Assembly (NCBI RefSeq): GCF_900167395.1
Contig: NZ_FUWK01000023.1
Location: 13,973-45,972, forward strand
DNA: 32,000 bases
Reading direction: 5' to 3'
DNA from: Nitrosomonas europaea
GTDB taxonomy: Bacteria > Pseudomonadota > Gammaproteobacteria > Burkholderiales > Nitrosomonadaceae
Shown here: positions 7,934 through 32,000 of the stretch, piece after piece
Layout: each line of letters begins with the position of its first letter
How positions within the stretch are numbered: the stretch's first letter is position 1
Notes under the pieces: model-generated
The model's input: only the letters and a program-made list of their open reading frames with translations
Told to the model about the DNA's origin: nothing
The model's database searches: none
Translations under genes and position numbers: made by a program

Positions 7934-8634
7934 GTCAAGTAATTACCCAAGATTTATCATTTTTTCATCTTGTCAGCGGTGCGAGCCTTCCGGTTCAACT
8001 GGTTATGCTGCTGTTGCTGCTGGCTTCATTTGTTTCCTGGTGGTTCATTTTCAGGAAATTGTTTACCCTTCGTCAGGAAATTAAACAGACTGATGAATTT
8101 GAGAACATTTTCTGGCGTGGATCGGATTTGAATGCTCTTTATCAGCGAGCAGCTGGTGCACGTCATGCCGTAGGCAGCATGGAACGGATTTTTGAAGCCG
8201 GATTCCGCGAATTTACCAAATATCAGTCGGGAGTCGATATCGGTCCCATCATGGACAGTACACGCGGCGCAATGCGGGCTGTTTATCAGCGGGAAATGGA
8301 CAGGCTCGAGTCACATCTGTCATTCCTGGCTACTGTAGGATCGGTCAGCCCGTATGTAGGGTTGTTTGGAACAGTGTGGGGCATCATGAATGCATTTCGT
8401 GAGCTGTCTAATGTTGGTCAGGCTACCATCGCGCATGTAGCACCGGGTATCGCCGAAGCGCTGATTGCGACGGCAATGGGACTTTTTGCGGCAATTCCGG
8501 CTGTGATTGCCTATAACCGCTATGCCAGTGATACTGCTCAGCTGGCAACCCGCTACGAAAGTTTCATAGAGGAAGTATCCAACGTACTGCAGCGTCGTGT
8601 GGCTAAACCTCGGGATATGGCGAATTTCTCATGA
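7930..8634 (+). CDS. tolQ: Tol-Pal system inner-membrane protein TolQ
   Basis: MotA/TolQ/ExbB family with three TM segments and the motif VSPYVGLFGTVWGIMNAF. The ATGA start/stop overlap with ybgC and the position ahead of tolR-tolA-tolB-pal support the call. Confidence 0.9.
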   Translation: MSQVITQDLSFFHLVSGASLPVQLVMLLLLLASFVSWWFIFRKLFTLRQEIKQTDEFENIFWRGSDLNALYQRAAGARHAVGSMERIFEAGFREFTKYQSGVDIGPIMDSTRGAMRAVYQREMDRLESHLSFLATVGSVSPYVGLFGTVWGIMNAFRELSNVGQATIAHVAPGIAEALIATAMGLFAAIPAVIAYNRYASDTAQLATRYESFIEEVSNVLQRRVAKPRDMANFS

Positions 8635-11813: not shown

Positions 11814-12640
11814 TGTTTTTGCGTGCTTTCCTGCCATTGCTTTTGTTGAGTTGTAATGTCGCACAGGCTGCGCTGTTTGGTGATTCTGAAACACGCGAAC
11901 AGTTGGAGGCACTGCGCACAAAAGTACTGGAGATGGAAGCGCGCATGCAGCGTACCGAAGAGGTTCTCATGGGACAGGCTTTGATCGAATTGCATACCCA
12001 GGCAGAGAACCTCAAGGAGGAAATGGGGAAGTTGCGGGGGCAGATAGAAGTACTGGAAGATGAAAATCGGTCGCTGCGCAAGCAGCAAAAGGATTTTTAC
12101 CTGGATCTCGATAACCGTTTGCGCCAGCTTGAGCCTGGTTCAGCGGGGACTGCTGCATCAGATTCCAGAATATCTTCCCCGTCATCGGAACAACTCGCTG
12201 CTGATACAAAGGATATAAAAAGTCCGGCTTCCGGAAAAACTGCTGCTGTTCTCCAATTGCCGGATACAGCACAGCGCAATCGTTATGATGCGGCTTATGC
12301 ATCAATCAAAAGCGGTGATTATTCAGGAGCTGTAACCGGTTTTGAGAGTTTTCTTGCACAATATCCGCAATCTGCTCTTGCTCCCTCTGCTGCGTATTGG
12401 GTTGGCAATGCATACTATGCACTAAGGGATTTTGACAAAGCGATTACTGCTCAGCAACGATTGATCGAGATTTATCCTGGCAGTCCCAAAGTAGCAGATG
12501 GGCTTCTCAATATGGCAAGCAGCCAGGCTGAAATGGGCCAGAAGGCAGCTGCCAGAAAAACACTGGAAAAACTCATCGCCAGTTACCCCGGTACTGAGGC
12601 AGCAACAAAAGCCAAGCAACGCTTGGGAACTCTGAAATAA
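11810..12640 (+). CDS. cpoB: Cell division coordinator CpoB (YbgF), coiled coil plus TPR domain
   Basis: Signal peptide, then a coiled-coil region (LEALRTKVLEMEARMQ...), then a C-terminal TPR-like region (YDAAYASIKSGDYSGAVTGFESFLAQYPQS...). Last gene of the tol-pal cluster, start overlapping the pal stop. Confidence 0.87.
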   Translation: MMFLRAFLPLLLLSCNVAQAALFGDSETREQLEALRTKVLEMEARMQRTEEVLMGQALIELHTQAENLKEEMGKLRGQIEVLEDENRSLRKQQKDFYLDLDNRLRQLEPGSAGTAASDSRISSPSSEQLAADTKDIKSPASGKTAAVLQLPDTAQRNRYDAAYASIKSGDYSGAVTGFESFLAQYPQSALAPSAAYWVGNAYYALRDFDKAITAQQRLIEIYPGSPKVADGLLNMASSQAEMGQKAAARKTLEKLIASYPGTEAATKAKQRLGTLK

Positions 12641-15165: not shown

Positions 15166-16179
15166 TTATAAATCTTCCAGATTCCAGCGGGCTTTGACGG
15201 TAAAGCTGCCGCCCGCTCTGAGGCGCTCATCGAGCTGCTGTAAACGTAATGCACCGGCCAGCGCAATCATTGCGCCGTTATCGGTACAAAACTCCAGCGC
15301 TGGGAAGAAAACGGTGATATCGGTTCCGGACAGATGGTGTAATAGCTTCTGACGCAATCGGCTGTTTGCGCCTACACCGCCTGCTACGACCAGTTGCTGC
15401 AATCCAGTGATATTCAGAGCAGTTACTGATTTTTTTACCAGCACATCGGTAACTGCGTCTTCAAAGGCAAATGCGATATCGGCGCGTGTCTGACTGTTCA
15501 TCTCATGCTTGCCGATCAGCAGAGCCGCAGCTGTTTTTAATCCGCTGAAACTGAAATTCAGATCATTGCTGTTCAGCATGGGGCGCGGGAGCCTGAATTG
15601 TTCTGCCCGGCCTTGTGTGGCCAGTTCTGCAAGCAACTTTCCACCGGGGTAGTCGAGGTCAAGTAATTTTGCAGTTTTGTCAAACGCTTCTCCGGCTGCA
15701 TCATCCACGGTTTCTCCCAATAACCGATACTGCCCGATTCCGTCTACCCGCATCAGTTGTGTGTGCCCTCCGGATACCAATAGTGCCACGAACGGAAAAT
15801 CAGGTGCCGGATCGGATAAAAGTGGGGAGAGCAGATGACCTTCAAGATGGTGGATGTTCAAGACGGGTATATTGCGCGCAAAAGCCAGAGCACTGCTGAA
15901 ACTTGCCCCGGTCAGCAACGCTCCTGCAAGCCCCGGACCCTGGGTACAGGCGATGGCATCAACAGATTCCAGCGAAGTATCCGATTGTCTGAATAATTGT
16001 CTGATGAGAGGCAGGATGCGGCGGATATGGTCGCGTGAAGCAAGTTCCGGCACGACACCGCCATATTCGCGATGCATGTCGACCTGAGAATATAGGGTAT
16101 GGCCGAGTAATCCCTGGCAGGTATCATAAAGTGCTACACCTGTCTCGTCACATGAAGTTTCAATACCTAATACAAGCAT
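15166..16179 (-). CDS. tsaD: tRNA N6-adenosine threonylcarbamoyltransferase TsaD
   Basis: From the ATG at 16179 the protein starts [18 protein letters not shown]. The motifs [10 protein letters not shown] and [10 protein letters not shown] are present. It is divergent from rpsU, as in E. coli. Confidence 0.94.
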
Positions 16180-21542: not shown

Positions 21543-21619
21543 GGGTCTGTAGCTCAGTTGGTCAGAGCAGGGGACTCATAATCCCTTGGTCGTAGGTTCA
21601 AGTCCTACCAGACCCACCA
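21543..21619 (+). tRNA. ileX: tRNA with CAU anticodon, most like tRNA-Ile2 (lysidine type, ileX-like). Elongator tRNA-Met is not excluded.
   Basis: The 77 nt fold by hand into a cloverleaf: acceptor GGGTCTG/CAGACCC, D stem GCTC/GAGC, anticodon stem GGGGA/TCCCT, loop CTCATAA, T stem GTAGG/CCTAC, encoded CCA. The anticodon arm, variable loop (TGGTC) and T loop (TTCAAGT) match my memory of E. coli ileX far better than metT. As I recall, ileX also lies just downstream of rpoD in E. coli. Confidence 0.85.
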
Positions 21620-21620
21620 T
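21573..21620 (+). repeat. attL: 48-bp direct repeat (3' part of the intact tRNA, from 2 nt before the anticodon loop to 1 nt past CCA)
   Basis: GACTCATAATCCCTTGGTCGTAGGTTCAAGTCCTACCAGACCCACCAT is identical base for base to 28836-28883. Confidence 0.9.
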
Positions 21621-21662
21621 AAAATCAATGATTTACGAAATTGCGTCTTGTAACCAAATGGA

Positions 21663-21687
21663 TTTTGTAAGCACTTTGTAAGCAGAT
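21663..21687 (+). repeat. 25-bp repeat TTTTGTAAGCACTTTGTAAGCAGAT (candidate integrase arm-type sites, P' arm side)
   Basis: Identical to 28696-28720. Internally it is a doublet of TTTGTAAGCA spaced 11 bp apart. A degenerate third copy, CTTGTAACCA, lies at 21647-21656. Confidence 0.55.
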
Positions 21688-21689
21688 AC

Positions 21690-21715
21690 AAAAAAGCCCA
21701 GCTTGCGGCCGGGCC
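21690..21715 (-). terminator. Rho-independent terminator ending the leftward operon of the island
   Basis: The minus strand reads GCCCGGCCGCAAGCTGGGC followed by TTTTTT. The stem is GC-rich with one mismatch. It sits 46 nt past the stop of the 145-aa gene and before attL. Confidence 0.6.
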
Positions 21716-21760
21716 AGTTTGCGCTATTTGTCCGGTTAACGTTCCGGATCACATGGAAGG

Positions 21761-22198
21761 TTACCTGCAAATCATTCGACCGTCGACTAACTGACATTTC
21801 ATTCCGCCGATGTGAACTATCTCACCGTGTAATCTAGGGTTATCGGTGCGAATCTTTGTAATGCGCTCAGCGCGATGTTCTGGCCTGGAATCGCCGATAT
21901 AGCAGCCTTGGCCGGCCTTGGGCGGCGTGACCATCTCACGGACCGGCTTACGGGCATCTTGAACTATCCGGCGAATTGCTGCAACCTGGGCGGCTGACAG
22001 TGCCGGCTTGGGCTTGCGCTTGCGCCGTAATTCAGCTATCGAATCTTTGACGATTCGAGTCAAGGCGGTCATCTCCGAGTCGGTGAAGGGCTTCGGCTTT
22101 TTCGCTATTGGCGGCCATGAATCGGTTGCCTGGCTTGCCCGGCCATTACCCCAGATTTTATCAGCAGTTTGGCGGCCTGTTGGTTTGCAATTGCACAT
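21761..22198 (-). CDS. Hypothetical protein, 145 aa (island cargo)
   Basis: ATG preceded by GGAGGA at about 7 nt spacing. Basic protein with an internal motif repeat (ALTRIVKDS / AAIRRIVQDA). I recognise no family. Confidence 0.7.
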   Translation of the reverse strand: MCNCKPTGRQTADKIWGNGRASQATDSWPPIAKKPKPFTDSEMTALTRIVKDSIAELRRKRKPKPALSAAQVAAIRRIVQDARKPVREMVTPPKAGQGCYIGDSRPEHRAERITKIRTDNPRLHGEIVHIGGMKCQLVDGRMICR

Positions 22199-22225
22199 AT
22201 TTAATCCTCCAAAAATTTATCCGGC

Positions 22226-22241
22226 TGTGACAACTATCACA
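22226..22241. promoter_or_regulatory. Perfect palindrome TGTGA-N6-TCACA (candidate operator) in the 113-bp gap before the 145-aa gene
   Basis: TGTGAcaactaTCACA at 22226-22241. A second palindrome, GTGATCAC, is at 22260-22267. It matches the CRP-type consensus shape, but the binding protein is unknown. Confidence 0.3.
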
Positions 22242-22311
22242 ACCTCTGGCAGTGTCGCCGTGATCACAAAATCTGCTCTCGGCTCGGTGACCGGTTGCTC
22301 TTCGTTGTCGC

Positions 22312-22941
22312 TCACCTGAACCCCCGTCCGCTGTTTCTAACCAATTCTTCCTGCTGCTGCTCGATAATTCGAAGGCCTTCCAGGCTTTGACTTTGCGGCA
22401 AACGGTCCTCATAAAGGCGAATTGTCCGCACCAGTTCGTCGCGCAAACTGTTCATGCGATCGCTGATTTTGATTGGAATCTGCCCGTCCGGCGCCGGCCA
22501 CCGAAGCTCATGATCCAAACCGGCGCGATTGTGCAAATCGCGCGCAGCGTGGTATGTTGCCGCTACCTCATCGCTCAGATTTTGCATATCGGTTGCAGCA
22601 GAAAAAACCGCATCAATCGCGGCTAAAAGTTTCTCAGCAGCCTTTGTCTCAGCCTGAACGGCGCCCAGGTGCGTTTTGTGGGCCTTATCGAACTGCGGCC
22701 TATATTCAGCCTGCCGAAGCACGGAAAGCCTCGATTCCAGCGCCCTTACAGTATCATCGGCGGCCAGCAGACTGTCTTCCAACCCGGTGTGCTCTTTGTT
22801 CAACCGAGCCAGCCCCAGCAGATCGCCGTCTGCGGATAGCCGTGCTTGGGTGTCGCTAAATTCCTTGAACCGCCCCGAGATTTCCGACAGCGTGGCTTTG
22901 GCTGCCAGCAGTTCGGTTTCGATTTTTTTAATCATGGTCAT
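22312..22941 (-). CDS. Hypothetical coiled-coil protein, 209 aa (island cargo)
   Basis: I chose the ATG at 22941 (MTMIKKIETELL...), which has GGAG 8 nt upstream. The track start at 23001 lacks an SD. The sequence is heptad-like and Ala/Leu/Glu/Arg-rich. No family recognised. Confidence 0.7.
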   Translation of the reverse strand: MTMIKKIETELLAAKATLSEISGRFKEFSDTQARLSADGDLLGLARLNKEHTGLEDSLLAADDTVRALESRLSVLRQAEYRPQFDKAHKTHLGAVQAETKAAEKLLAAIDAVFSAATDMQNLSDEVAATYHAARDLHNRAGLDHELRWPAPDGQIPIKISDRMNSLRDELVRTIRLYEDRLPQSQSLEGLRIIEQQQEELVRNSGRGFR

Positions 22942-23140
22942 TGTCCGCTCCAAAGTTAGCATGACTAAGCCTGTCAGCTCGACGGGAAACGGCAGCCACA
23001 TTCACCGATAATTCAAACAACTCGCGCCCTTCAGAGTCAGCCTGTATGGCGCGCTCGTAGTTATCCAGAGCCCTATTCAAATCTGCGAAAGCCTTCCACG
23101 CGGCCTGCAGTGCCAACTGACGGTCATTGCTGTTAAACAT
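22928..23140 (-). CDS. Hypothetical protein, 70 aa (island cargo)
   Basis: ATG with AGGAGG upstream. Its start overlaps the stop of the upstream 72-aa gene (ATGTTTAA arrangement). Its 3' end overlaps the next gene start by 14 nt. Confidence 0.6.
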   Translation of the reverse strand: MFNSNDRQLALQAAWKAFADLNRALDNYERAIQADSEGRELFELSVNVAAVSRRADRLSHANFGADNDHD

Positions 23141-23351
23141 TGTGTTCCTCCTGATTCATCAAAATTTGAACAAGCCCCGTCAACCGCCTAAGGGCATCTA
23201 CTGCCTCGCTGCGCGCCAACTCTAGGGCACGGCAAAGCCCGATATCTGTCTCATCGTCCCAACCAAGAGACGACTCCAGCTCGTCAACCATGCTCGCGCA
23301 AGTTACGTATGAAATCGCCGCATCGACAATCAATGCTCTTATCTCGCTCAT
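23133..23351 (-). CDS. Hypothetical acidic protein, 72 aa (island cargo)
   Basis: ATG with GGGAGG upstream. ATGA start/stop overlap with the upstream HTH gene. Confidence 0.6.
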   Translation of the reverse strand: MSEIRALIVDAAISYVTCASMVDELESSLGWDDETDIGLCRALELARSEAVDALRRLTGLVQILMNQEEHNV

Positions 23352-23578
23352 TGTTGTACCTCCCGAACTAGAACATATCTTGCCACGTTGTGGTGCGACA
23401 GCCCCCGATGATCGGGCACGCCATCACCAAGCACTGTGTTAATAACGTGCCCAGATTTCCGCAGCTCTTGAATCCTTCCCGCCGGGTGAGCGACTCCGTG
23501 ATTCCGCAGTTCGAAAGTGCTCATCGGTTTTACGCGAAGCAACTTCAAAACCGCCTTCTTTTGTGTTTCGGCATCCAT
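23348..23578 (-). CDS. Small winged-helix DNA-binding protein (HTH_39-like), 76 aa
   Basis: From the ATG at 23578 (AGGAG upstream): MDAETQKKAVLKLLRVKPMSTFELRNHGVAHPAGRIQELRKSGHVI...VARYVL. The pattern xTxELRxxGxxHPxxRIxELRxxGxxI matches my memory of Pfam HTH_39. The track ORF start at 23677 adds a Cys-rich leader with no SD. Confidence 0.7.
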   Translation of the reverse strand: MDAETQKKAVLKLLRVKPMSTFELRNHGVAHPAGRIQELRKSGHVINTVLGDGVPDHRGLSHHNVARYVLVREVQQ

Positions 23579-23614
23579 GACAATCTCCTTTTGTAAACGA
23601 AGTGGATAGGGATA

Positions 23615-23642
23615 ATTATACGCGTTCAGGAAGCATAAACAA
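23615..23642 (-). promoter_or_regulatory. Candidate sigma-70 promoter for the HTH/cargo operon
   Basis: The minus strand reads TTGTTT, a 16-nt spacer, then TATAAT. The -10 is at 23620-23615 and the -35 at 23642-23637, about 35 nt upstream of the ATG at 23578. Confidence 0.35.
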
Positions 23643-23759
23643 CCCAAAACACAATATGTTGCGATTAAACAACACAAAATATACTATATATATTGGTTTA
23701 ATATCTGATGGCCCTGTCGGCGGGTCGGTCCAAGTTTGGGCGCATCAGTGGCAAATCAC

Positions 23760-23813
23760 TTTTCCGTTTGAAACGGAGTAGCGCTTTTTTCCGTTTGAAA
23801 CGGAGTAGCGCTT
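23760..23813. repeat. Tandem 27-bp duplication, each unit holding the 15-bp palindrome TCCGTTTGAAACGGA
   Basis: TTTTCCGTTTGAAACGGAGTAGCGC occurs at 23760-23784 and again at 23787-23811, separated by TT. Both copies are perfect. Confidence 0.9.
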
Positions 23814-23989
23814 TTGGCACGAGATCGCCCGCCGTTAAGCCATCCAGCACAGCCCGCACATCGATAAATACATCGGTGCCAGCCTTCACGGGGTGCACTT
23901 ATCGCCGTGTTTGATGGTGCCTGAAATCGTCCATGAATCATTTTTTACTCCGTGATGGTTAATTGTTTACGCCGTGTTAATGATGGCCA

Positions 23990-24280
23990 GCAAGCTTTGG
24001 CAAGGTTTTGGCAAGGAAATGGCAAGGAAATGGCAAAGGTTAATTAATAATTAATTGTTAATAATCAACAACTTACCTTTACTTCTTCCCGAACCTTGCC
24101 ATTGCCCCCCCCTCATCATTTTTTTCCGGTGAAAAATTTGTGCATTTTTGTGTGCATGCAGGCAAAGTCTGAAAATGGCAAGGATTTCGGTATTTTCATT
24201 TAAAATCAACAACTTAAAATTTTAAAAGCTTGCCAAAACCTTGCCATCGTTTGCCAAACCTTGCAAAACCTTGCCAAAGA
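23990..24280. other. Candidate replication origin: phased iterons (TGGCAAGG / CCTTGCCA) flanking AT-rich segments
   Basis: Plus-orientation copies at 23998, 24009, 24020 and 24031 (11-bp phase). An inverted copy at 24094-24101 and a plus copy at 24176-24183. Five inverted copies between 24229 and 24276 (~10-bp phase). AT-rich blocks at 24040-24075 and 24190-24228 each contain AATCAACAACTTA. The region sits directly 3' of the primase/DUF3987 genes. Confidence 0.6.
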
Positions 24281-24283
24281 TTT

Positions 24284-25672
24284 TCACTCGGCCACAGAAA
24301 GCTTATTGTGGGATTTCAACAAAATGCCTTTGACAATCAGGGTATCGATGAAAGCTTTTGACGCCTTGTAATCATCCCGCCCCATATCGGCGAAGGGCTT
24401 GCGGCGCCTGGCCTTTGCTGTCACGGCGGAAACTGCCATAGGCGCCTTGTTTTCACGTAGGATGGAAAGAACGGAATCTGTAGCTGTTTGCAGGCCAGAT
24501 TCACCGGCAGCATCTATCACGGCGCGCATGTGTTCGTGCAGGCTCATAACCAGCTCACAGGCCGCTTCCACGGTGGCAAGTGGTATTTGCACCGGGTAGG
24601 AAAAATCGATTTCTTCATTCTGCATGAACTCAAACGAATGAATCACCGATGCAATCTTCAGGACGTGATTCTCGAACTTGCCCAGCCAGCCGACCATCAC
24701 CGCTTCACCGGCGCGCTCAAGCTTGCCCAGTTCGGCTTCATGGGCAATCCTTTGCTGGCGAATGTACGCACGTCCATCCTTGCACGGCTCAATGATAATC
24801 GGTGGCTTTTCAGCAGCCATTCTTTCCACGCATCGGGTGGCGGCTTTATCGTATTGGCTTGCGTCCACCGTGTGCGGTTCAAACTTCCGGCGGCCCAGCA
24901 AGCTGCGCTCGGCGACGAACAGGAATCGCTCGGTGAGGCCGCTGCCGTTGGAAGCTTGCAGAACGCGCCTGATGCTGCCATTTTGCGCAAACATGACGAC
25001 CTGCGTGCTAACCCTTCCGGTGAAGGCGTTTCGCGTTGATCTGGCACCAGAAACCCAACCGCCATCCCAACCGGTGAGAAGCAGGTCATTGTTCGAATGA
25101 AAGCCGCCTTCCGCCGGGAACAGACTTCTGAACAATCCCTGCTCGCTGCTGGCAAGTGGCAGCCGCCCGCTTTTAGATTCAGCCAGTTTGGAATCAATTG
25201 CTGCTGCCGTGCCGTCTGTGATTAAATCGATAAAATATGGCTTCTGATTCTGCTTGTCAGCCTTGTTGTGCTCGTGAATCTGCTTGTTCAAATCGCGAAT
25301 TGCTGCCTGATAAGCGTGCAGCCCGTAGTTCAGCACACGCGTCTTGCCGGAAGCTGGTGGCTGTTCGCACACGGTGAAAAGTCCCGCCGGAAGCTCGTAA
25401 CCGCTTTCAAACCGCGTCGTAAAGCTGCAGGCCGCCGGAACGCTTGCAGCGCCCAGAATCGTTACAAACACGGTGCCAAAGGGCATTTCTGCCTGCGCAG
25501 CCACATCATGCGCAAACCGGCCGATAACAGTATTTTTACGGAGATAGTCAGGCACTGCGACCGCCGGAACTTCACAGGTGAAAATCCCATTTAAGAATTT
25601 CTCAACGTGCCCTTCATCGGTGACCATCACTTCACCTGCCGATACTGGATCAGGAATCAATGCATTTGTCAT
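24284..25672 (-). CDS. DUF3987-like (YfjI-like) putative replicative NTPase/helicase, 462 aa
   Basis: Walker-A-like PPASGKTRV. The size and the position directly after a Toprim primase (ATGA overlap) are typical of the split P4-alpha-like primase/helicase pair. The family call is from memory, not from a search. Confidence 0.7.
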   Translation of the reverse strand: MTNALIPDPVSAGEVMVTDEGHVEKFLNGIFTCEVPAVAVPDYLRKNTVIGRFAHDVAAQAEMPFGTVFVTILGAASVPAACSFTTRFESGYELPAGLFTVCEQPPASGKTRVLNYGLHAYQAAIRDLNKQIHEHNKADKQNQKPYFIDLITDGTAAAIDSKLAESKSGRLPLASSEQGLFRSLFPAEGGFHSNNDLLLTGWDGGWVSGARSTRNAFTGRVSTQVVMFAQNGSIRRVLQASNGSGLTERFLFVAERSLLGRRKFEPHTVDASQYDKAATRCVERMAAEKPPIIIEPCKDGRAYIRQQRIAHEAELGKLERAGEAVMVGWLGKFENHVLKIASVIHSFEFMQNEEIDFSYPVQIPLATVEAACELVMSLHEHMRAVIDAAGESGLQTATDSVLSILRENKAPMAVSAVTAKARRRKPFADMGRDDYKASKAFIDTLIVKGILLKSHNKLSVAE

Positions 25673-26589
25673 TGCATGTCCCTCCAGTTTTGCAAATCGT
25701 TGAAATCTGATAATTCCATCGGCGCATCATCTGGAAACGGCGGGAACACAACGCCACAATCCAGCGTGCTGGCCGCCAGCAATGCAGCGGTGCGGCCCGG
25801 ATTGTCTTTGGTCAGGCGATCATCGTCTCCGGCGATGACAAGCTCTTTGTGCGGAAACTCACGCCGAATATAACGCCCCACATCCAGCAGATTGCCTGCG
25901 TTCATCGAGCAAAAAACAGCGCAGCCGGTGGATTGGTGAATGGTTGCACCGGTTGCCCAGCCCTCGCAAATGAAGATTCTTTGACCGACTTGAACCGTGC
26001 CAATGGGTGAGTAGCTGCCCTTGATCTTTCCACCGGTGAGGAATCTTTTTTCACCATCTGGCATGATGAACTGAAGGCTCGCAATCTCACTGCCGCTGTA
26101 TAGCGGAACGATCAGGGAATCATTCACGCATCGCAAACCGTGCGACTGAACGTTCTTGTTTATCAGATATGGATGCTCAGAATCAGCCGGCTCGGCGTTA
26201 GCCCAAAGCTTTTGTGCCTTTGCTGCTGCCTCTTTGTGGCGCCGTGCGGTATCGGCTTCCCGCTCAAGCCTCATGGCCTCCACGCGCTTGCGGTGCAATT
26301 CCCGTTCCGCCGGTGTCATTGTGTCGGGCGATTTGCTGCACCAACTCTGCGTAAGCCCCAGCCGCCAACAGCCAAACGCTCCGGCAACCGGGTCATCAGG
26401 ATGGAACACATACCAGCCCGAATCATCGCCCCGCTTGCCATTGCTTGAAAATCGATGCAGCTTGCCGTCATCGATAATCCCCGCCGGCGGTGTTAGTCCG
26501 GCATTGATAATTTCTTGATGAAATGCAGTTAAGTTATTGTTATAATTTGCATGTGCCGTTGGCTGCTTTTTCGAAAGAAGGGTGGCCAT
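25669..26589 (-). CDS. Toprim-domain DNA primase (P4-alpha N-terminal-like), 306 aa
   Basis: Toprim acidic motifs ICEGWATGATI and VIAGDDD. The N-terminal motif is DGKLHRFSSNGKRGDDSGWYVFH...GAFGCWRLG...W, typical of satellite/island primases. GGGAGG SD. Confidence 0.8.
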   Translation of the reverse strand: MATLLSKKQPTAHANYNNNLTAFHQEIINAGLTPPAGIIDDGKLHRFSSNGKRGDDSGWYVFHPDDPVAGAFGCWRLGLTQSWCSKSPDTMTPAERELHRKRVEAMRLEREADTARRHKEAAAKAQKLWANAEPADSEHPYLINKNVQSHGLRCVNDSLIVPLYSGSEIASLQFIMPDGEKRFLTGGKIKGSYSPIGTVQVGQRIFICEGWATGATIHQSTGCAVFCSMNAGNLLDVGRYIRREFPHKELVIAGDDDRLTKDNPGRTAALLAASTLDCGVVFPPFPDDAPMELSDFNDLQNWRDMQ

Positions 26590-26592
26590 TTT

Positions 26593-26754
26593 TTATGCCT
26601 CCCTTTTCGACCAAACCAAAAAACGGTTTGGCAGTTTTTCAGGTACCCAGCCGAAATATTCACCGGTCCAATACAGGCGTGTGCGCACGCTTGCAGGCTT
26701 AACCCCAAACATTGCGGCCAGTTCATCAGTAGTAAGTCTTTGTTTCTCAATCAC
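26593..26754 (-). CDS. Small AlpA/excisionase-like HTH protein, 53 aa (not in the ORF track)
   Basis: My translation is MIEKQRLTTDELAAMFGVKPASVRTRLYWTGEYFGWVPEKLPNRFLVWSKREA. GTG start at 26754 with GAGGTGA 6 nt upstream. The stop lies 4 nt before the primase ATG. The HTH core is LTTDELAAMFGVKPASVRTRL. It replaces the implausible 73-aa ORF 26529-26750 in another frame. Confidence 0.6.
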   Translation of the reverse strand: MIEKQRLTTDELAAMFGVKPASVRTRLYWTGEYFGWVPEKLPNRFLVWSKREA

Positions 26755-26897
26755 AATAATCACCTCACGTCAGGTGACAGGGATTAGAAGCCGGGCGAGT
26801 CGATTCAAAACCGCCAGCTAGCTAATCTCTATCACTTCGAATCGACGTGGCGATATTAATGATTGTGAAGCAGCGTGACAGGTGCCAACAAATCAAA

Positions 26898-27470
26898 TCA
26901 TTTATGGCCCCTATTTTTGTTAAGCCGCCGAACCATTGCGACCGCGTGGCTAAGCTCGGCCAATCCGCGCATATTCAGCTCTGTACGGCAGAACAGCTTT
27001 GCGTTAAGGAGGTCAGTGTCCCTATTGTTAATGCCGCTGGGGCTACCGCTGTCAATGCCGCTGAAGCCCCTGTTGTTTACGTCCTCAATCATCCGGCGAG
27101 CACCGGAATCGGATAAATCAAAATCGCAGTAGGTATGGCCGAACTGCTTTATGAGGAAGTCGGAAACATTCTTCCTCCGTATTTCGGAGTGGCCCTTTGC
27201 GATGAAGTAATATTCGTGCCATGCAATCATTGCGACGAATCGCCAGCCGGCGTCATTGCTGATCGTTGGCCGTCCACGTGCAGGCACAAACCAGCCGCCG
27301 GTTCCCTCTGCTAACTGGCGCTCGATGCCATTCAGAATGAACGCCTGCAGCTCAGCAGGGATGACCATGCCACCACGCTGGGTTCGGTATATGAAATGCC
27401 TCAGCGCCCGGTCTGCGGCGTCTTTTGTGACATCGCCGGTCAGATTTGAGTAGTCATCAAATATTTGCAT
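26898..27470 (-). CDS. Hypothetical protein, 190 aa, between int and the alpA-like gene
   Basis: The ATG at 27470 overlaps the integrase stop by 14 nt. The track alternative is TTG at 27491. No motif recognised. Confidence 0.6.
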   Translation of the reverse strand: MQIFDDYSNLTGDVTKDAADRALRHFIYRTQRGGMVIPAELQAFILNGIERQLAEGTGGWFVPARGRPTISNDAGWRFVAMIAWHEYYFIAKGHSEIRRKNVSDFLIKQFGHTYCDFDLSDSGARRMIEDVNNRGFSGIDSGSPSGINNRDTDLLNAKLFCRTELNMRGLAELSHAVAMVRRLNKNRGHK

Positions 27471-28707
27471 TGGACAAAATCCATTCTTCAATTTTCGTGT
27501 GCCACACTCGGAGCAAATCGACAGGTCGCCGTTTGTAGTGGCGTTCGGCTATTGCTGACGGCTTATGGCCCATAATTTGCGCCGTAATACCTGATGGCGC
27601 TTCAACCCACTCGCTCAAGGTGGCAAAACTGCGCCTTAATCCATGAATCGATAGTGGGGGCAGTCCTGCGGCTTCAATCGCCTGATTGTGGGCTTTCCGT
27701 GGCTCCTGCAGCCTTCCTGATTTTGCTCGCTTACTTGCGAACACAAATTCATTGATTTTCGGCAAGGATTGCAGTAATTGGCTAACGTACGGCGTCAAGG
27801 GGATCGTGCGGCCCGAATGTTCAACCTTATCGGCAAGGTGAATCGTCTGCCACTGGAAATCAACATCTTCCCACCCAAGCCCGGCTAGTTCTTCTCGGCG
27901 TGCACCGGTCAACAGTAGCGATTGCAGATAGGCAGACATCACCGGGTTATCTATTGACCGAACGGCGGCGAACCATGATGCCAATTGCTCGCGCTGCAGG
28001 CAGTCAGTTCGAGCCGTCGGCTTCGGTAGCTCGCGTTTCAGTTTCGCACAAGCGTCAGAATTGACCTGGTTCCTGTAGGCTGGTTGATTGCCACACCAAC
28101 TCAGGAATGTGCCAAGCAGGCTCAGGGCTAGCCGCGCTTGGGCTGGTCGTCGAGTCGCTTCGTTATCCAGCCACTGCGCAACTTTTTCACGGGTGATGCC
28201 CTTCAACGGCAAATCAAGCAGCGGTCGTAAAATTCCTTTCTCGGTGTAAGCTGGCGCACCGATACGGCGGCCACGTGTCACAGGTTCACCGCCATCACGA
28301 GCCATTTTCAGGTGGTCGGCTGCGTGCGCCTCTGACCATTTTCCAGACCGTGCGGCAATGTAGTCACGCCATGCTGGCAGCGCCGGTTCATCGGTGATTC
28401 GTGCTTGCACATCGGCGGCAATCTTCTCTTGTTTAACCAGCCGCGGATCTCGCCCCTGGTCAACCAGTCCCTGCAGCTCACGCGCGCGCTGCCTGGCCTG
28501 TTCAATCGTCCAAACTTCGGTGTCGCCGATTGTTATGCGGATTGATTTGCCGGCGAATCGTCCTTGAAAGATGAACGCGCGTTTCCCAGCGGTTGCCCGA
28601 ACAGCCAGCCCTGGTGTGGCGGTGTCCCATAAAAACGCTTGCGATGCATCGGCAGGGCAGGTATGGGCTGCTATCCTTGATGGCGTCAGTCTGACTTTTG
28701 TAAGCAC
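27457..28707 (-). CDS. int: Tyrosine-type site-specific integrase (P4-like, with DUF4102-like N-terminal arm-binding domain)
   Basis: The catalytic set is readable: LLLTGARREEL (Arg), SIHGLRRSFAT (His-x-x-Arg), GHKPSAIAERHYKRR (His, Tyr). The N-terminus LTPSRIAA...WDTATPGLAVRATAGKRAFIFQGRFAGKSIRITIG is typical of tRNA-targeting island integrases. GTG start with no clear SD. Confidence 0.92.
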   Translation of the reverse strand: MLTKVRLTPSRIAAHTCPADASQAFLWDTATPGLAVRATAGKRAFIFQGRFAGKSIRITIGDTEVWTIEQARQRARELQGLVDQGRDPRLVKQEKIAADVQARITDEPALPAWRDYIAARSGKWSEAHAADHLKMARDGGEPVTRGRRIGAPAYTEKGILRPLLDLPLKGITREKVAQWLDNEATRRPAQARLALSLLGTFLSWCGNQPAYRNQVNSDACAKLKRELPKPTARTDCLQREQLASWFAAVRSIDNPVMSAYLQSLLLTGARREELAGLGWEDVDFQWQTIHLADKVEHSGRTIPLTPYVSQLLQSLPKINEFVFASKRAKSGRLQEPRKAHNQAIEAAGLPPLSIHGLRRSFATLSEWVEAPSGITAQIMGHKPSAIAERHYKRRPVDLLRVWHTKIEEWILSNANI

Positions 28708-28720
28708 TTTGTAAGCAGAT
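28696..28720 (+). repeat. 25-bp repeat TTTTGTAAGCACTTTGTAAGCAGAT (candidate arm-type sites, P arm side), overlapping the int start codon
   Basis: Identical to 21663-21687. It covers the int GTG (28707-28705) and its leader. Confidence 0.55.
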
Positions 28721-28737
28721 TTAGTCGATATCGACCA

Positions 28738-28766
28738 ATTCTAATCTATGTGCTTATCAATGTAAA
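28738..28766 (-). promoter_or_regulatory. Candidate sigma-70 promoter of int
   Basis: The minus strand reads TTTACA (28766-28761), a 17-nt spacer, then TAGAAT (28743-28738). The 12-bp palindrome GTCGATATCGAC (28724-28735) lies immediately downstream, followed by the 25-bp arm repeat. Confidence 0.45.
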
Positions 28767-28835
28767 CAGAAGTAAACCTATGAATTTGAGGGATTTAACT
28801 ATTATCGGGATAGATTGAAATATAGCAGAACTTGA

Positions 28836-28883
28836 GACTCATAATCCCTTGGTCGTAGGTTCAAGTCCTACCAGACCCACCAT
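28836..28883 (+). repeat. attR: 48-bp tRNA 3' fragment (direct repeat of 21573-21620)
   Basis: Perfect identity with attL. There is no tRNA 5' half upstream of it, so it is a fragment and not a second tRNA gene. Confidence 0.9.
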
Positions 28884-30419
28884 TTCATGTTTTCCCTCAT
28901 CGCTTCCTTCTAAAAGCAGGAATGGAAGCGACTTTTCGGGAGTTCTAAACCCTTCGTTCCGGCAATACCGAAGCCGTTCACTGAAAGCGAGCTTCATAAC
29001 GGCTCTTTTATGTTCCAGCCTGCTAGAAACCCATAGCTGGTAAGGGTTTGACAGGAACGAGAATGCAGTTCTAAACGTTTCATCGAACGATTGCAGCGGA
29101 CGACCGCATTGTGCGATTTTTTCGTCGAGCGCTATTTTTTCTTCTTCGAGCTGCCGAATCTTCTTCTCATAAGCTGTGATCAGGATTGAATTGTCTGTAT
29201 CCGCAATCCGGTCGAGGAATTGTTCTGTCTTGCGCTCAATCTGAAGCAGATTGCGGCGAATTGTCTCTGCTTCCTGCTTGGCAGTATCGCGTTTGATATT
29301 CCACAGATCCGTAAAAATCTCGGCAGCCAGGAGGAACATTTCTTTAGAAGGCTTCATTTCGCTCAATAGTGCCCCGAACTCGCCTTCCAGCTTGTCCTTG
29401 GGAATGGATTTACCGTTCTGGCTGCATTTGACACCGCTTGTTTTACCGTAGCACAGGTAATAGGCATACAATCCGCCCCCGCCACGCGTCCAGCATGCTG
29501 TCAAAGGTGATCCGCAGCAGGCGCAAGTGACAAAGCCACGTAAGGGGAAATCTTCATTGATATCCTTGCGTACCGGGGCCTTGGCCTGTCCGTTCAACCG
29601 GGCCTGTACCTTTTTCCAGGTTTCATAGCTGACCAATGCCTCGTGATGGCCTTTGACCAGATGAATACCCCAGTCTGGTTTGTCCAGATAACCGGCATAG
29701 AGAACGCGGCTGAGGATTTCCTTGATCCTTTGCATGTGCACGGTTCCAAATCTATCCTTCGGATAATGCGGAGAGGCTTCAAAGAACCGCATCAGTTCGA
29801 TCTGTGTTTCAAACCGGCCTGAAGCAAACCCTTCCAGTCCTTCCGCAATCACAGAAGCGCAGGGCTGATCCGGGACGAGTAATTTTCCGTGCTTGCCCAC
29901 TTTGTCATAGCGGTAGCCGATAGGGGCGTTAAACACGGAATAGCCATTCATCATGCGAGCCTTCATGCGATTGAACACCTGTTCGGCATTCTTCTCACGC
30001 TGGTGCGCAGCCACGGAAGCCAGGAGGTGCTCAACCAGCCTGCTGTCGGAATCATCACCAAATTCAATGGAGGGTGATTCCAGCTTGCCACCAGCAGCAG
30101 AGATGGAGGCACGCAAATGCAGATGTGTTTCGATATCGCGGGCAAGACGACTGATATCGTCAATGATCACCACCGGACGAGTAGCGCGGTGTTGCTTGAG
30201 ATAGATCAGCATGGCTTTCATATTGGGGCGATCCAGCAGTTTGCCGGTGATCCCCTCATCATGAAAGACTTCCACGACTTCATAGCCTTTATGCTTTGCA
30301 TATTCCCGGCAGCGTGTTTCCTGAGAAGCCAAGCCGTGGCCTTCCGTCACCTGCTTTAGGCTGGATACCCTGCAATAAATCACAGCTTGTTGTGTCACGA
30401 TAGAATCCTCTTTACTCAT
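28839..30419 (-). CDS. Large serine recombinase, 526 aa. The last 14 codons and the stop lie inside the tRNA fragment.
   Basis: Resolvase catalytic domain (AVIYCRVSSLKQ with the nucleophile Ser, DDISRLARD), recombinase domain, zinc ribbon (CACCGSPL...YYLCYGK...KC) and coiled coil (IRQLEEEKIALDEKI). I chose the ATG at 30419 over the track TTG at 30434. The C-terminal ...MVGLVGLEPTTKGL is the antisense translation of the tRNA T and anticodon arms. Confidence 0.88.
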   Translation of the reverse strand: MSKEDSIVTQQAVIYCRVSSLKQVTEGHGLASQETRCREYAKHKGYEVVEVFHDEGITGKLLDRPNMKAMLIYLKQHRATRPVVIIDDISRLARDIETHLHLRASISAAGGKLESPSIEFGDDSDSRLVEHLLASVAAHQREKNAEQVFNRMKARMMNGYSVFNAPIGYRYDKVGKHGKLLVPDQPCASVIAEGLEGFASGRFETQIELMRFFEASPHYPKDRFGTVHMQRIKEILSRVLYAGYLDKPDWGIHLVKGHHEALVSYETWKKVQARLNGQAKAPVRKDINEDFPLRGFVTCACCGSPLTACWTRGGGGLYAYYLCYGKTSGVKCSQNGKSIPKDKLEGEFGALLSEMKPSKEMFLLAAEIFTDLWNIKRDTAKQEAETIRRNLLQIERKTEQFLDRIADTDNSILITAYEKKIRQLEEEKIALDEKIAQCGRPLQSFDETFRTAFSFLSNPYQLWVSSRLEHKRAVMKLAFSERLRYCRNEGFRTPEKSLPFLLLEGSDEGKHEMVGLVGLEPTTKGL

Positions 30420-30669
30420 CCGGTCTGGATGCAACGTTTTGGTATAGCGATTGGATTGAACGATCCTTTGAATCTATCACGTCACTTTGGCCCTGCAAAG
30501 TTTTGCGGTTTTTTGCCTGCAACGCCTGCTGGACGGGGTGCTTGTTGAAAGCTGCTGAGATGAATTCATCCATGATCATATAGATATGGCGGATGATTTC
30601 CTCTTCATGATCCTTGCCCAGATTGAGGGGTGCGAGGTATTTACGGTATTTTTCGATATCCAGAGGCAT
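30412..30669 (-). CDS. Hypothetical protein, 85 aa, translationally coupled to the serine recombinase
   Basis: ATG at 30669 with AAGGA upstream: MPLDIEKYRKYLAPLNLGKDHEEEIIRHIYMIMDEF.... Its stop overlaps the recombinase ATG by 8 nt. No family recognised. Confidence 0.5.
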   Translation of the reverse strand: MPLDIEKYRKYLAPLNLGKDHEEEIIRHIYMIMDEFISAAFNKHPVQQALQAKNRKTLQGQSDVIDSKDRSIQSLYQNVASRPDE

Positions 30670-31070
30670 GACTATCCTTTCCACGTAGGCATAGAGCTGC
30701 TTGTACGGGGGGTGAATGAACCGGAAATTTGTGATCACAAGAGCATCACAAATGCGCTCAAAGTTTATTGTTCAATTGGGATTGTCTTTGTATCACGCAC
30801 CATTTTCTTTGCGCGGGAAACAGAGCGCTGGCCGTGTCAAAAGCGAAACGGTATTCAGGGATACGGTATCTTCTGTAAATACAGAAAATTGCCGCAGAAA
30901 TAGGTATTTAATCCTAAGTTAGGCCAGAGTGCGGGTTTTGTCCAGTGAAAAACAGTCTGTTCTGGAGAAAAATTAAAATGCATTCATGCTAAGTTTGATT
31001 CATTCTTGTACATAAAGAGGTATGAAGGATCGATTAAAGGCGCTTCTCCTTGCGCTTATTAATTGGGAGG

Positions 31071-31634
31071 TCATAAAGGCGTGCGGAATATGCCGTGATA
31101 TTGACGTTGAAGAAGAAGGAGATTATCAGCTATAGCTCTATCCTCTTCTAAAGAAACCCTCCCATTCGAGAAAACTCTCATGACAGAGGAAAAAAGAGCG
31201 CCCCCATAAAGCACGCATGCTTTAAACGCTTGCCAACCATCTCTTTCAAAGCTGCCTTCAAGATACTCGGGGTTATGAATAGATGCTTTGATTGTGTCAC
31301 GTATATTTTGATCCATTCCTTCATCCTTGAATGGAATTTCATCTAAGTGGGTGATTATTTGAAAGGGTCCATATTCTGATTGTACATATGAACAAAAAAA
31401 CCTCAGGTAATCTATCGCAGATTTTGAGTCATCCAGAGATAATACATGTCGATTAAGGGAATAAAGAGTATCTGATTTCCCATTAAGTAATAGAGCATAC
31501 TCATCATTAAAAATTGCCGAAAAAATAAGTTTATTGTTATTTGATGGGTTATAAAGCTGTATATCCACTAAACTACAATCTTGGTAAAAAACTAAAGGCA
31601 AGAGACGCGCAGATTGGCCGGTATAATTATCCAA
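31071..31634 (-). CDS. Hypothetical protein, 187 aa, in a visibly AT-rich segment, possibly truncated at the 5' end
   Basis: A long ORF in low-GC DNA. The only start is TTG at 31634, with no SD. The frame stays open upstream to about 31664, close to the putative IS end. No family recognised. Confidence 0.5.
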   Translation of the reverse strand: MDNYTGQSARLLPLVFYQDCSLVDIQLYNPSNNNKLIFSAIFNDEYALLLNGKSDTLYSLNRHVLSLDDSKSAIDYLRFFCSYVQSEYGPFQIITHLDEIPFKDEGMDQNIRDTIKASIHNPEYLEGSFERDGWQAFKACVLYGGALFSSVMRVFSNGRVSLEEDRAIADNLLLLQRQYHGIFRTPL

Positions 31635-31655
31635 AATTTCGGATAATTCTAAAAA

Positions 31656-32000
31656 TGTAGTAGTTCAGATTTGATCTGACAGCAGGTCTTGCCAAGAGGT
31701 GGGATTACCCGGTTTGATAGAGGTGCGAATCTTTATCAACCAAACGCGAAAGCGTAAAGGAGTAATCCCATGAGCAGTGTTCATCATAAAATCATTAAAC
31801 ACAAGATTGGCTTGCTTAATCTGGCAGCTGAGCTTGGCAATGTATCCCGTGCCTGTAAGGTGATGGGTTTTTCTCGCGATACTTTCTATCGCTATCAGGC
31901 AGCTGTGGAAACAGGAGGTGTTGAAGCTCTGATAGATGCAAACCGACGTAAGCCCAATATCAAGAACCGTGTAGAAGAAGCGACGGAAGCAGCGATCCTG
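31656..32000 (+). mobile_element. Left part of an insertion sequence (left boundary approximate, continues past the window)
   Basis: A transposase gene starts at 31770. The candidate terminus TGTAGTAG... at about 31656 cannot be confirmed without the other end. Confidence 0.45.
31770..32000 (+). CDS. IS transposase, N-terminal HTH region (partial, 3' end outside the window), probably IS481-family-like
   Basis: AAGGAG SD then ATG: MSSVHHKIIKHKIGLLNLAAELGNVSRACKVMGFSRDTFYRYQAAVETGGVEALIDANRRKPNIKNRVEEATEAAIL. This HTH plus RRxPNxKNRV pattern is what I remember from DDE transposases annotated as IS481 family. The frame is open to base 32000. Confidence 0.7.
   Translation, partial: MSSVHHKIIKHKIGLLNLAAELGNVSRACKVMGFSRDTFYRYQAAVETGGVEALIDANRRKPNIKNRVEEATEAAIL

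Follow-up and report, generated by a model that had tools for sequence, protein, structure and literature searches.

A 7.3-kb island lies in a tRNA gene of Nitrosomonas europaea, and the question it raises is what kind of element this is and by what route, if any, it passes between cells. We analyze a 32,000-nucleotide stretch of contig NZ_FUWK01000023.1 (RefSeq assembly GCF_900167395.1, positions 13,973 to 45,972 of the forward strand; hereafter "the window"), in which the island occupies positions 21573 to 28883. N. europaea is the model ammonia oxidizer and a workhorse of wastewater nitrification, and its phages and mobile elements are barely known. From its gene design we lean towards reading the island as a phage satellite that integrates, replicates itself and depends on a helper, and whose nearest counterparts in layout are minimal satellites of the PICMI and VEIME types and the satellite phiAH14b. 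Minimal satellites have already been described; what is new here is a conserved operon of four to five genes, without resemblance to known families or structures, in the place where one would look for helper-exploitation genes.

Whether the island is a unit at all depends on its boundaries, which are set by three features:

21543..21619, plus strand: target tRNA(CAT), called by ARAGORN
21573..21620: attL core, a 48-bp perfect copy of the tRNA 3' end (repeat search and empty-site comparison)
28836..28883: attR core, the second 48-bp copy; the 10 nt on its left are the diverged continuation of the tRNA

ARAGORN calls this tRNA(CAT) as a single gene and labels it Met. It stands directly after rpsU-dnaG-rpoD, in what we take to be an ileX-like position as in E. 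coli, and presumably it may be a lysidine-modified tRNA-Ile2. A similar tRNA gene is annotated as tRNA-Ile in one phage record. A repeat search of the window returned a direct repeat of 58 nt at 93% identity with a start-to-start spacing of 7263; its perfect 48-nt part (21573-21620 = 28836-28883) takes in the 3' end of the tRNA and one base beyond, and outside this part the similarity runs for ten further bases with four mismatches. A first-pass annotation, made by a model from the sequence alone, had reported a perfect 48-bp repeat of the tRNA 3' part around about 7.2 kb, which is borne out with 7,263 bp between the repeat copies. This interval holds ten genes, all on the minus strand, encoding proteins of 416, 190, 56, 306, 462, 76, 72, 70, 209 and 145 amino acids (aa), in agreement with public gene calls. 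The same annotation had set these genes against flanking core genes; the strand is as it said, but the right flank is not core, being occupied by a large serine recombinase gene (Resolvase and Zn_ribbon_recom domains, 28839-30434) whose last codons lie inside the tRNA 3' copy. By exact-sequence look-up, identical island proteins occur in N. europaea ATCC 19718 (CAD84142-CAD84147), in further N. europaea assemblies and in metagenomes.

An empty site, with the tRNA joined to the flank at 28884, had been predicted, and we searched for it by looking up contigs that encode exactly identical RpoD. It is present in two metagenome contigs (L098 and L101), in which the tRNA is joined directly to the DNA found right of 28883 in the window and 357 of 357 nt match the computed site. 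In addition, a related island (L008, GCA_039807715.1) occupies the same tRNA, and its flank there is the native hairpin terminator typical of a tRNA gene. Because there are both precise empty sites and an alternative flank, the 7.26-kb unit moves independently: it is discrete and recently mobile, and either present or precisely absent at the tRNA 3' end. These sites also refute the idea that it is a fragment of a larger prophage or an integrative and conjugative element (ICE), to which we assign a negligible probability. That idea could draw on the adjoining DNA, which also has a recombinase and an insertion sequence (IS), but L098 and L101 lack just the 7.26-kb unit, L008 has just this unit beside the native terminator, and five relatives have the same compact structure of 7.3-8.9 kb. 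The adjoining serine-recombinase block (28839-31634, the recombinase followed by orphans of 108 and 187 aa, with an IS also nearby) occurs without the island in L098 and L101, and the island occurs without the block in L008, so the block is a separate variable insertion at the same tRNA.

What, then, does the unit encode? Its proteins were scanned against Pfam, PHROGs, PADLOC and NCBIfam, and these hidden Markov model (HMM) scans, with a terminator call, uphold the inventory of the first-pass annotation (a tyrosine integrase, a Toprim primase, a DUF3987 protein, a winged helix-turn-helix (HTH) protein, five orphans and a terminator) as well as its view of a discrete, tRNA-integrated replicative unit with an int-alpA-primase/helicase-ori layout. 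The recombination module comprises the following features, read in the direction of transcription except for the last:

28738..28766, minus strand: sigma-70-like promoter upstream of int, 10 of 12 positions matching
28696..28720: arm-type integrase sites at the attR end, two copies of TTTGTAAGCA, overlapping the int start codon
27457..28707, minus strand: P4-type tyrosine integrase (416 aa; Pfam, PHROGs), with R, HxxR and Y readable in the translation
26898..27470, minus strand: orf190, the integrase-overlapping gene (14-nt overlap with int), in the same position as iolg of PICMI
26764..26897, minus strand: conserved intergenic stretch preceding the AlpA-slot gene, possibly a regulated early promoter
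26593..26763, minus strand: 56-aa HTH protein in the AlpA/excisionase slot, GTG start
21663..21687: arm-type integrase sites at the attL end, two copies of TTTGTAAGCA in a 25-nt block

The integrase has Arm-DNA-bind_3 (6.1e-13) and Phage_integrase (1.8e-15) domains in Pfam. The 25-nt block with its two TTTGTAAGCA decamers is repeated perfectly just inside both island ends, and these paired blocks fit arm-type sites for an integrase with an arm-binding domain. Judged by its residues and domains, the integrase is intact and of P4 type, with predicted arm sites at both ends, that is, with the machinery for site-specific recombination apparently intact. The divergence of orf190 tracks the integrase type, with 84% identity where the integrase is 95% identical and 44% where the integrase is of another type. 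In PICMI115, iolg is needed for excision together with int and alpA, and iolg-int overlaps in PICMI are 1, 4 or 13 nt (PMC10803314). The protein in the AlpA slot had been described as an AlpA/Xis-like HTH of 53 aa. An HTH protein does occupy the slot, but from its GTG start it has 56 aa, and the AlpA call is weak: it scores 15.5 bits against HTH_17 in Pfam, below the cutoff of 27, and hhalign aligns it with AlpA proteins at a probability of 25-36% over the HTH only. In a related island, L007, the same slot holds a true Phage_AlpA above the Pfam threshold.

Downstream of these genes lies the replication module:

25669..26589, minus strand: Toprim_3 primase (306 aa), P4-alpha N-terminal type (Pfam, PHROGs)
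24284..25672, minus strand: DUF3987 P-loop protein (462 aa), putative replicative helicase (Pfam, PHROGs)
23998..24276: replication origin, seven exact TGGCAAGG iterons in two opposed sets flanking AT-rich DNA
23760..23813: two perfect 27-nt tandem repeat units, each with the palindrome TCCGTTTCAAACGGA, between the origin and the accessory-operon promoter

The primase matches phrog_2249 ("DNA primase") at 4.5e-67, aligned to positions 36-307 of this 802-position profile, and is 48% identical (phmmer 4e-84) to p15 of phiAH14b, itself 42% identical to P4 alpha according to its authors (PMC4936722). The helicase matches DUF3987 at 1.3e-28 and phrog_2373 ("DNA helicase") at 7e-55. An iteron/AT-rich origin directly 3' of the replication genes had been proposed, and it stands in the form of the TGGCAAGG octamer, of which seven copies are packed into 280 bp immediately behind the helicase gene; across the window it occurs 8 times against 1.5 expected, a count reached by 0 of 100 shuffles. 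The 27-nt tandem repeat, which had been taken for an iteron set, is rejected both as that and as a pac site, since it is not conserved in related islands and is separate from the TGGCAAGG iterons. Each replicon variant among the related islands also has its own iteron sequence. The replicon reads as a primase and helicase of phage/satellite type beside a putative cognate iteron origin. This bears on the integrative plasmid that the first-pass annotation had offered as an alternative. In tblastn searches the DUF3987 helicase matches 1,157 phage records, where the annotation is mostly DNA helicase, whereas not one of 72,556 PLSDB plasmid records gives a match; a plasmid origin of the replicon is therefore disfavored.

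The third part of the island is an operon running towards attL:

23579..23700, minus strand: promoter/operator region of the accessory operon; its sequence is kept in L001, L007 and L011 even with a different replicon
23348..23578, minus strand: 76-aa winged-HTH protein, HTH_39 (2.8e-9, Pfam), first gene of the accessory operon
23133..23351, minus strand: orf72, a small orphan of the family core
22928..23140, minus strand: orf70, a small orphan, optional in the family (absent in L007 and L011)
22312..22941, minus strand: orf209, an orphan of the family core, predicted long helical-hairpin coiled coil (AlphaFold2 model, pLDDT 82.7)
21761..22198, minus strand: orf145, an orphan of the family core, with four invariant cysteines (C2, C4, C135, C144) at its two ends
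21695..21715, minus strand: intrinsic terminator closing the operon after orf145, conserved in L008 and L009

The proteins of 190, 72, 70, 209 and 145 aa have no significant match in Pfam, PHROGs, PADLOC or NCBIfam, and tblastn with the six accessory and integrase-overlapping proteins finds nothing in 50,697 phage or 72,556 plasmid records, so that the orphans of the first-pass annotation remain orphans. Pairwise ratios of nonsynonymous to synonymous substitution (dN/dS) are 0.2-0.35 among them at dS 0.6-1.4 (0.21-0.27 for orf145), and because of these ratios we regard them as real genes with a maintained function; all island genes, the orphans included, are under purifying selection. The orf209 model shows a long helical hairpin followed by shorter helices. 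Foldseek searches with it against PDB and BFVD return only generic coiled-coil helical hairpins (best E 0.17), and the orf209 profile has no sequence match in PDB, no relative among 185,579 GTDB species genomes and one 1.9-kb fragment among JGI metagenome contigs. The model of orf145 is poor (pLDDT 59) and was left out of the fold search; a weak profile match of this protein to ribosomal uL24 in PDB (E 0.0014) is not relied on. A conserved 17-mer of the operon promoter has 21 matches in IMG/VR, all due to chance, with flanks about 40% identical.

How widely is this gene set distributed? Homologs of orf209 with at least 63% identity form only 26 clusters, and those with a name come from Nitrosomonas. 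The islands of this family measure about 7.3-8.9 kb and have a common gene order, within which the integrase/att and replicon/iteron modules have been exchanged between members. Their targets are the tRNA(CAT) with the 48-bp core, another tRNA in L013, and, for the 8.9-kb island L007, a tRNA-Ser(CGA) with a 15-bp core repeat and a different integrase; the replicon is either a primase plus DUF3987 or a 680-aa Toprim_3-AAA_25 fusion. The set HTH_39-orf72-(orf70)-orf209-orf145 is kept in every member, and part of its promoter region is also conserved. By these comparisons the island is a member of a narrow family that appears specific to Nitrosomonas. From the constancy of the operon we infer a role in the element's own cycle, since defense-type cargo usually varies between related satellites. 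Separately, the intact DUF3987 gene of L007 is followed at 8297-8528 by the remains of the C-terminus of a second one, which look like a scar of replicon exchange.

The family also allows us to weigh whether the island is an integrated plasmid or a decaying remnant, inherited vertically with no current horizontal transfer. We regard this as very unlikely. One member does have a frameshifted integrase, split into 137 and 274 aa (the metagenomic copy L003, 3025-4259, which is either a decaying copy or an assembly error), and the family's confinement to a narrow Nitrosomonas lineage would also suit vertical inheritance. Yet strains with identical RpoD have a base-perfect empty site, the same accessory operon stands behind different integrases at different tRNAs, purifying selection extends to all genes, the att core and arm sites are intact, and the helicase is without plasmid homologs.

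Is there anything that ties the operon to phages? A search with the orf209 profile against 1.84 billion cluster representatives recovered, apart from its own cluster, just four remote proteins, all similar in length (E 1e-8 to 7e-4), and hhalign supports three of them (L103, L104 and L107) with a probability of 96-97% over 150-170 columns. In L104 the gene order is integrase, overlapping gene, HTH_17, primase, split DUF3987, HTH_39, TerS-like, orf209-like, tape-measure-like and Dit-like; the TerS-like protein (143 aa) matches small-terminase PHROGs (phrog_309, 7.6e-10) and the Dit-like tail protein matches PF21821 (2.3e-11). These relatives suggest a link, a remote one, of the operon to phage packaging or assembly, and they are the sole such link. 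The locus in L104 (1784-13565, Logan SRR28047115) is a distant, larger island with the same backbone, truncated where the contig stops; tail-module genes would be an unusual find in a satellite-like element. Two further comparisons at these loci were rejected. The notion that orf72 and orf70 (142 aa together) are a split form of the 143-aa TerS-like protein of L104 receives an hhalign probability below 1%, and homology between orf145 and a 170-aa neighbor in L103, with which it has CxC and KxWG motifs in common, one of about 1%.

We hold it as a tentative possibility that the conserved operon is a new helper-exploitation module, by which a 7-kb island would be packaged by a Nitrosomonas phage without homologs of TerS, capsid or scaffold proteins. 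Conversely, the satellite-type chassis might be kept mainly as a carrier, with the operon serving as a new defense/abortive-infection or host-benefit module and transfer being optional. Such a reading draws on the position of the operon at the att-proximal end, the usual place for cargo, on the extra variable small open reading frames (ORFs) found there in L007, L008 and L011, and on the orphan state of its proteins, a trait of many new defense genes; moreover, defense genes are carried by P4-like satellites and PICMI (PMC10803314; PMC13586616). We nevertheless consider it rather unlikely, as PADLOC returns no match, as satellite defense cargo is typically variable whereas this operon is the most constant part of a family that swaps its integrase and replicon, and as the remote homologs of orf209 stand among TerS-like and tail-like genes and not in defense neighborhoods.

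To place the island among known elements, we compared it with the described satellite types. The first-pass annotation had suggested a minimal satellite type that was uncharacterized, a statement now outdated: PICMI (PMC10803314) and VEIMEs (PMC9618062) are minimal satellites described as lacking capsid-remodeling or packaging genes, and PICMI has the same core. PICMI-like elements of Vibrionaceae average 6.7 kb, against 7.3 kb here, and present the order int, int-overlapping gene, alpA slot, DUF3987-type replication protein and accessory genes; neither they nor the island have capsid-remodeling or packaging genes. The overlap with int (14 nt here versus 1, 4 or 13 nt) is similar, orf190 and iolg being likened by position. 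The differences are equally clear. The island sits in a tRNA(CAT) downstream of rpoD, whereas PICMI lies next to fis, which its authors treat as a hallmark, and Pfam detects no Fis-type protein on the island; its host is a betaproteobacterial nitrifier and not one of the Vibrionaceae; it has a separate Toprim primase of P4-alpha type besides DUF3987, together with an explicit iteron origin; and its accessory operon of four to five genes is conserved, while that of PICMI is variable. Against the PICMI model (int, alpA and prim, the last as DUF3987 or DUF5906), the island has the integrase and DUF3987, and its AlpA-slot protein falls below the model's Pfam thresholds.

The satellite phiAH14b of Pseudomonas sp. 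ANT_H14 (KU708005; 16.8 kb) has been shown to be packaged in helper capsids and has no structural genes (PMC4936722). Its primase is the closest characterized relative of the island primase, and its genes run on one strand in a comparable order (int, hypothetical gene, alpA, short Toprim primase, separate helicase, accessory genes). It differs in its size and its 29 genes, in a helicase of another family and in carrying homologs of helper tail-assembly genes. A second relative on the primase side is vB_Pae_U10 (L132, PP003922.1, 10,183 bp), deposited as the complete genome of a "Pseudomonas phage": its primase is 54% identical to that of the window over half its length, and its other genes include an integrase, excisionase-like genes and a capsid gene of the GpN type. 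From its content one would sooner take it for a satellite or a fragment than for a phage. The island shares no accessory protein with phiAH14b or vB_Pae_U10.

With P4-like satellites (PMC10085698) the island has in common a P4-type Arm-DNA-bind_3 integrase at a tRNA 3' end, the AlpA slot, a primase domain homologous to the N-terminal part of P4 alpha and an iteron origin after the replication gene. Its helicase, however, is a DUF3987 protein on a separate polypeptide, while P4 alpha is a fused primase-helicase, and its length of 7.3 kb compares with a median of 10 kb for P4-like elements. Neither psu, delta nor sid is detectable on the island by Pfam and PHROGs (for orf209 also by Foldseek), and no epsilon-like protein was recognized. 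VEIMEs resemble the island in their monomers of <5 to 16.8 kb, in the lack of capsid genes and in carrying an integrase together with genes of the primase/helicase and AlpA types. Their definition is operational, by concatemers found in virions, and a model of concatemer packaging in full-size helper capsids has been put forward for them (PMC9618062). For PICI Types A and B, which call for at least 4/5 core components including terS/rpp/ppi and cpm, Pfam and PHROGs show only int, the AlpA slot and a primase/replicase, and none of the cfPICI genes (capsid, portal, protease, head-tail adaptor, connector, terL) has a match in these two databases. The PLE marker set (few Vibrio) likewise has no counterpart beyond an analogy of replication proteins, the island integrase being of the tyrosine type and the accessory proteins having no PHROG or Pfam match. 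The island thus fits no definition of a P4-like satellite, PICI Type A or B, cfPICI or PLE, in keeping with the earlier failure to recognize sid/psu/delta, a capsid gene, terS, a relaxase or a coupling protein, which the four profile databases and the Foldseek search of orf209 confirm. In SatelliteFinder terms it belongs with "Type C", a large group of int-alpA-primase elements that the tool's authors explicitly put to one side, viewing them as possible new families of satellites (PMC10085698).

The island could also be a hitch-hiker of another sort, excising and replicating by itself and being moved by a conjugative element through an unrecognized oriT, by vesicles or by natural transformation. 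The lack of any detectable packaging gene or cos/pac site and the absence of the family from viral contig collections would be expected of such an element, and many int-bearing islands are mobilized by conjugation (PMC11389934). The genes point elsewhere, and we judge this route quite unlikely. Pfam and NCBIfam reveal no relaxase, coupling or Mob protein, and more generally no gene of integrative mobilizable elements or ICEs (relaxase, coupling protein, type IV secretion system) among the ten proteins, an oriT being beyond the reach of sequence alone; the primase is homologous to phage and satellite primases; helicase homologs occur in phage records and in 0 of the 72,556 plasmid records; and the order int/iolg/alpA/prim is experimentally tied to phage-induced excision in PICMI (PMC10803314).

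Under the satellite reading that we favor, a signal, most likely infection by a helper phage or its induction, would switch on the AlpA-slot gene, whose product would act with Int and orf190 to cut the island out at the 48-bp core. The primase and the DUF3987 helicase would then fire the TGGCAAGG origin to give many copies or concatemers, and the island DNA would be packaged in helper capsids. Multimers would probably be packaged, since a phage genome is far longer than 7.3 kb and the island has no capsid-resizing gene; multimer packaging has been shown for PICMI and VEIMEs (PMC10803314, PMC9618062). In a new cell the integrase would re-insert the island in the tRNA. The best candidate for a module of regulation and helper interaction is HTH_39-orf72-(orf70)-orf209-orf145, which might act, for example, via a coiled-coil adaptor (orf209) and a protein with four cysteines (orf145).

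Several observations weigh against this reading. No helper phage was identified, and no cos or pac site is recognizable in the island. Searches of IMG/VR viral contigs with the DUF3987 protein and the orf209 profile yielded no family member, and none is present in deposited phage records, where island DNA matched only the tRNA. The small HTH protein is only weakly AlpA-like by sequence. What connects orf209 with packaging and tail genes is distant similarity (E 1e-8 to 7e-4) and gene neighborhood in three short contigs, and by hhalign the other orphans are not shared with these loci. Whatever the accessory operon does for the host or for the element might have nothing to do with phages. Finally, excision or circular forms are not in evidence. 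A 7,275-bp Logan contig present in 18 samples was considered as a circular form and rejected: its two ends consist of the final 30 nt and the initial 30 nt of the 48-bp repeat, and because a k=31 unitig break of the integrated form gives such ends, these contigs are merely unitigs broken at the repeat and say nothing on excision.

The first-pass annotation had also suggested that satellites are not known to have been characterized in nitrifier-like betaproteobacteria, and in the literature searched we likewise found no paper linking Nitrosomonas with phage satellites. With its clear boundaries, the island is a candidate, open to testing, for what would be the first satellite-helper system of a nitrifier. 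If it is confirmed as a satellite, nitrifier populations would have an active helper phage and a route of gene flow between strains, and the family would have helper-interaction genes that resemble none known (sid/psu/delta, cpm, rpp/ppi, terS). Should the helper-exploitation reading of the operon hold as well, the island would found a satellite family of its own, and ammonia-oxidizing bacteria would have their first satellite-helper system. Of practical use are the compact site-specific integrase/att pair and the small iteron replicon, native to an organism with few genetic tools.

The target site itself attracts further elements. In other strains with identical RpoD (L095, L097 and L099; positions 12256-12540), a third element cuts the anticodon loop of the same tRNA and brings its own replacement tRNA(CAT), and in L095 the displaced original 3' part of the tRNA lies about 3.5 kb downstream (15868-15918). 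OZ252054.1, a Nitrosomonadaceae metagenome-assembled genome, has a different island of 6.05 kb (L016, 11931-17980), whose limits are marked by a repeat of the 3' end of the same rpoD-linked tRNA; it encodes proteins of the HTH_36 and HTH_Tnp_1_2 types and an integrase that adjoins the tRNA. The rpoD-linked tRNA(CAT) is thus an integration hotspot. Farther to the right in the window, positions 31570-31768 (minus strand) give a strong Rfam match to the proteobacterial small RNA psRNA2 (RF02349, 139 bits). This match adjoins the start of an ORF at 31770-32000 (plus strand) that we take to be the N-terminus of an IS transposase; the corresponding gene in L001 has rve integrase-core domains.

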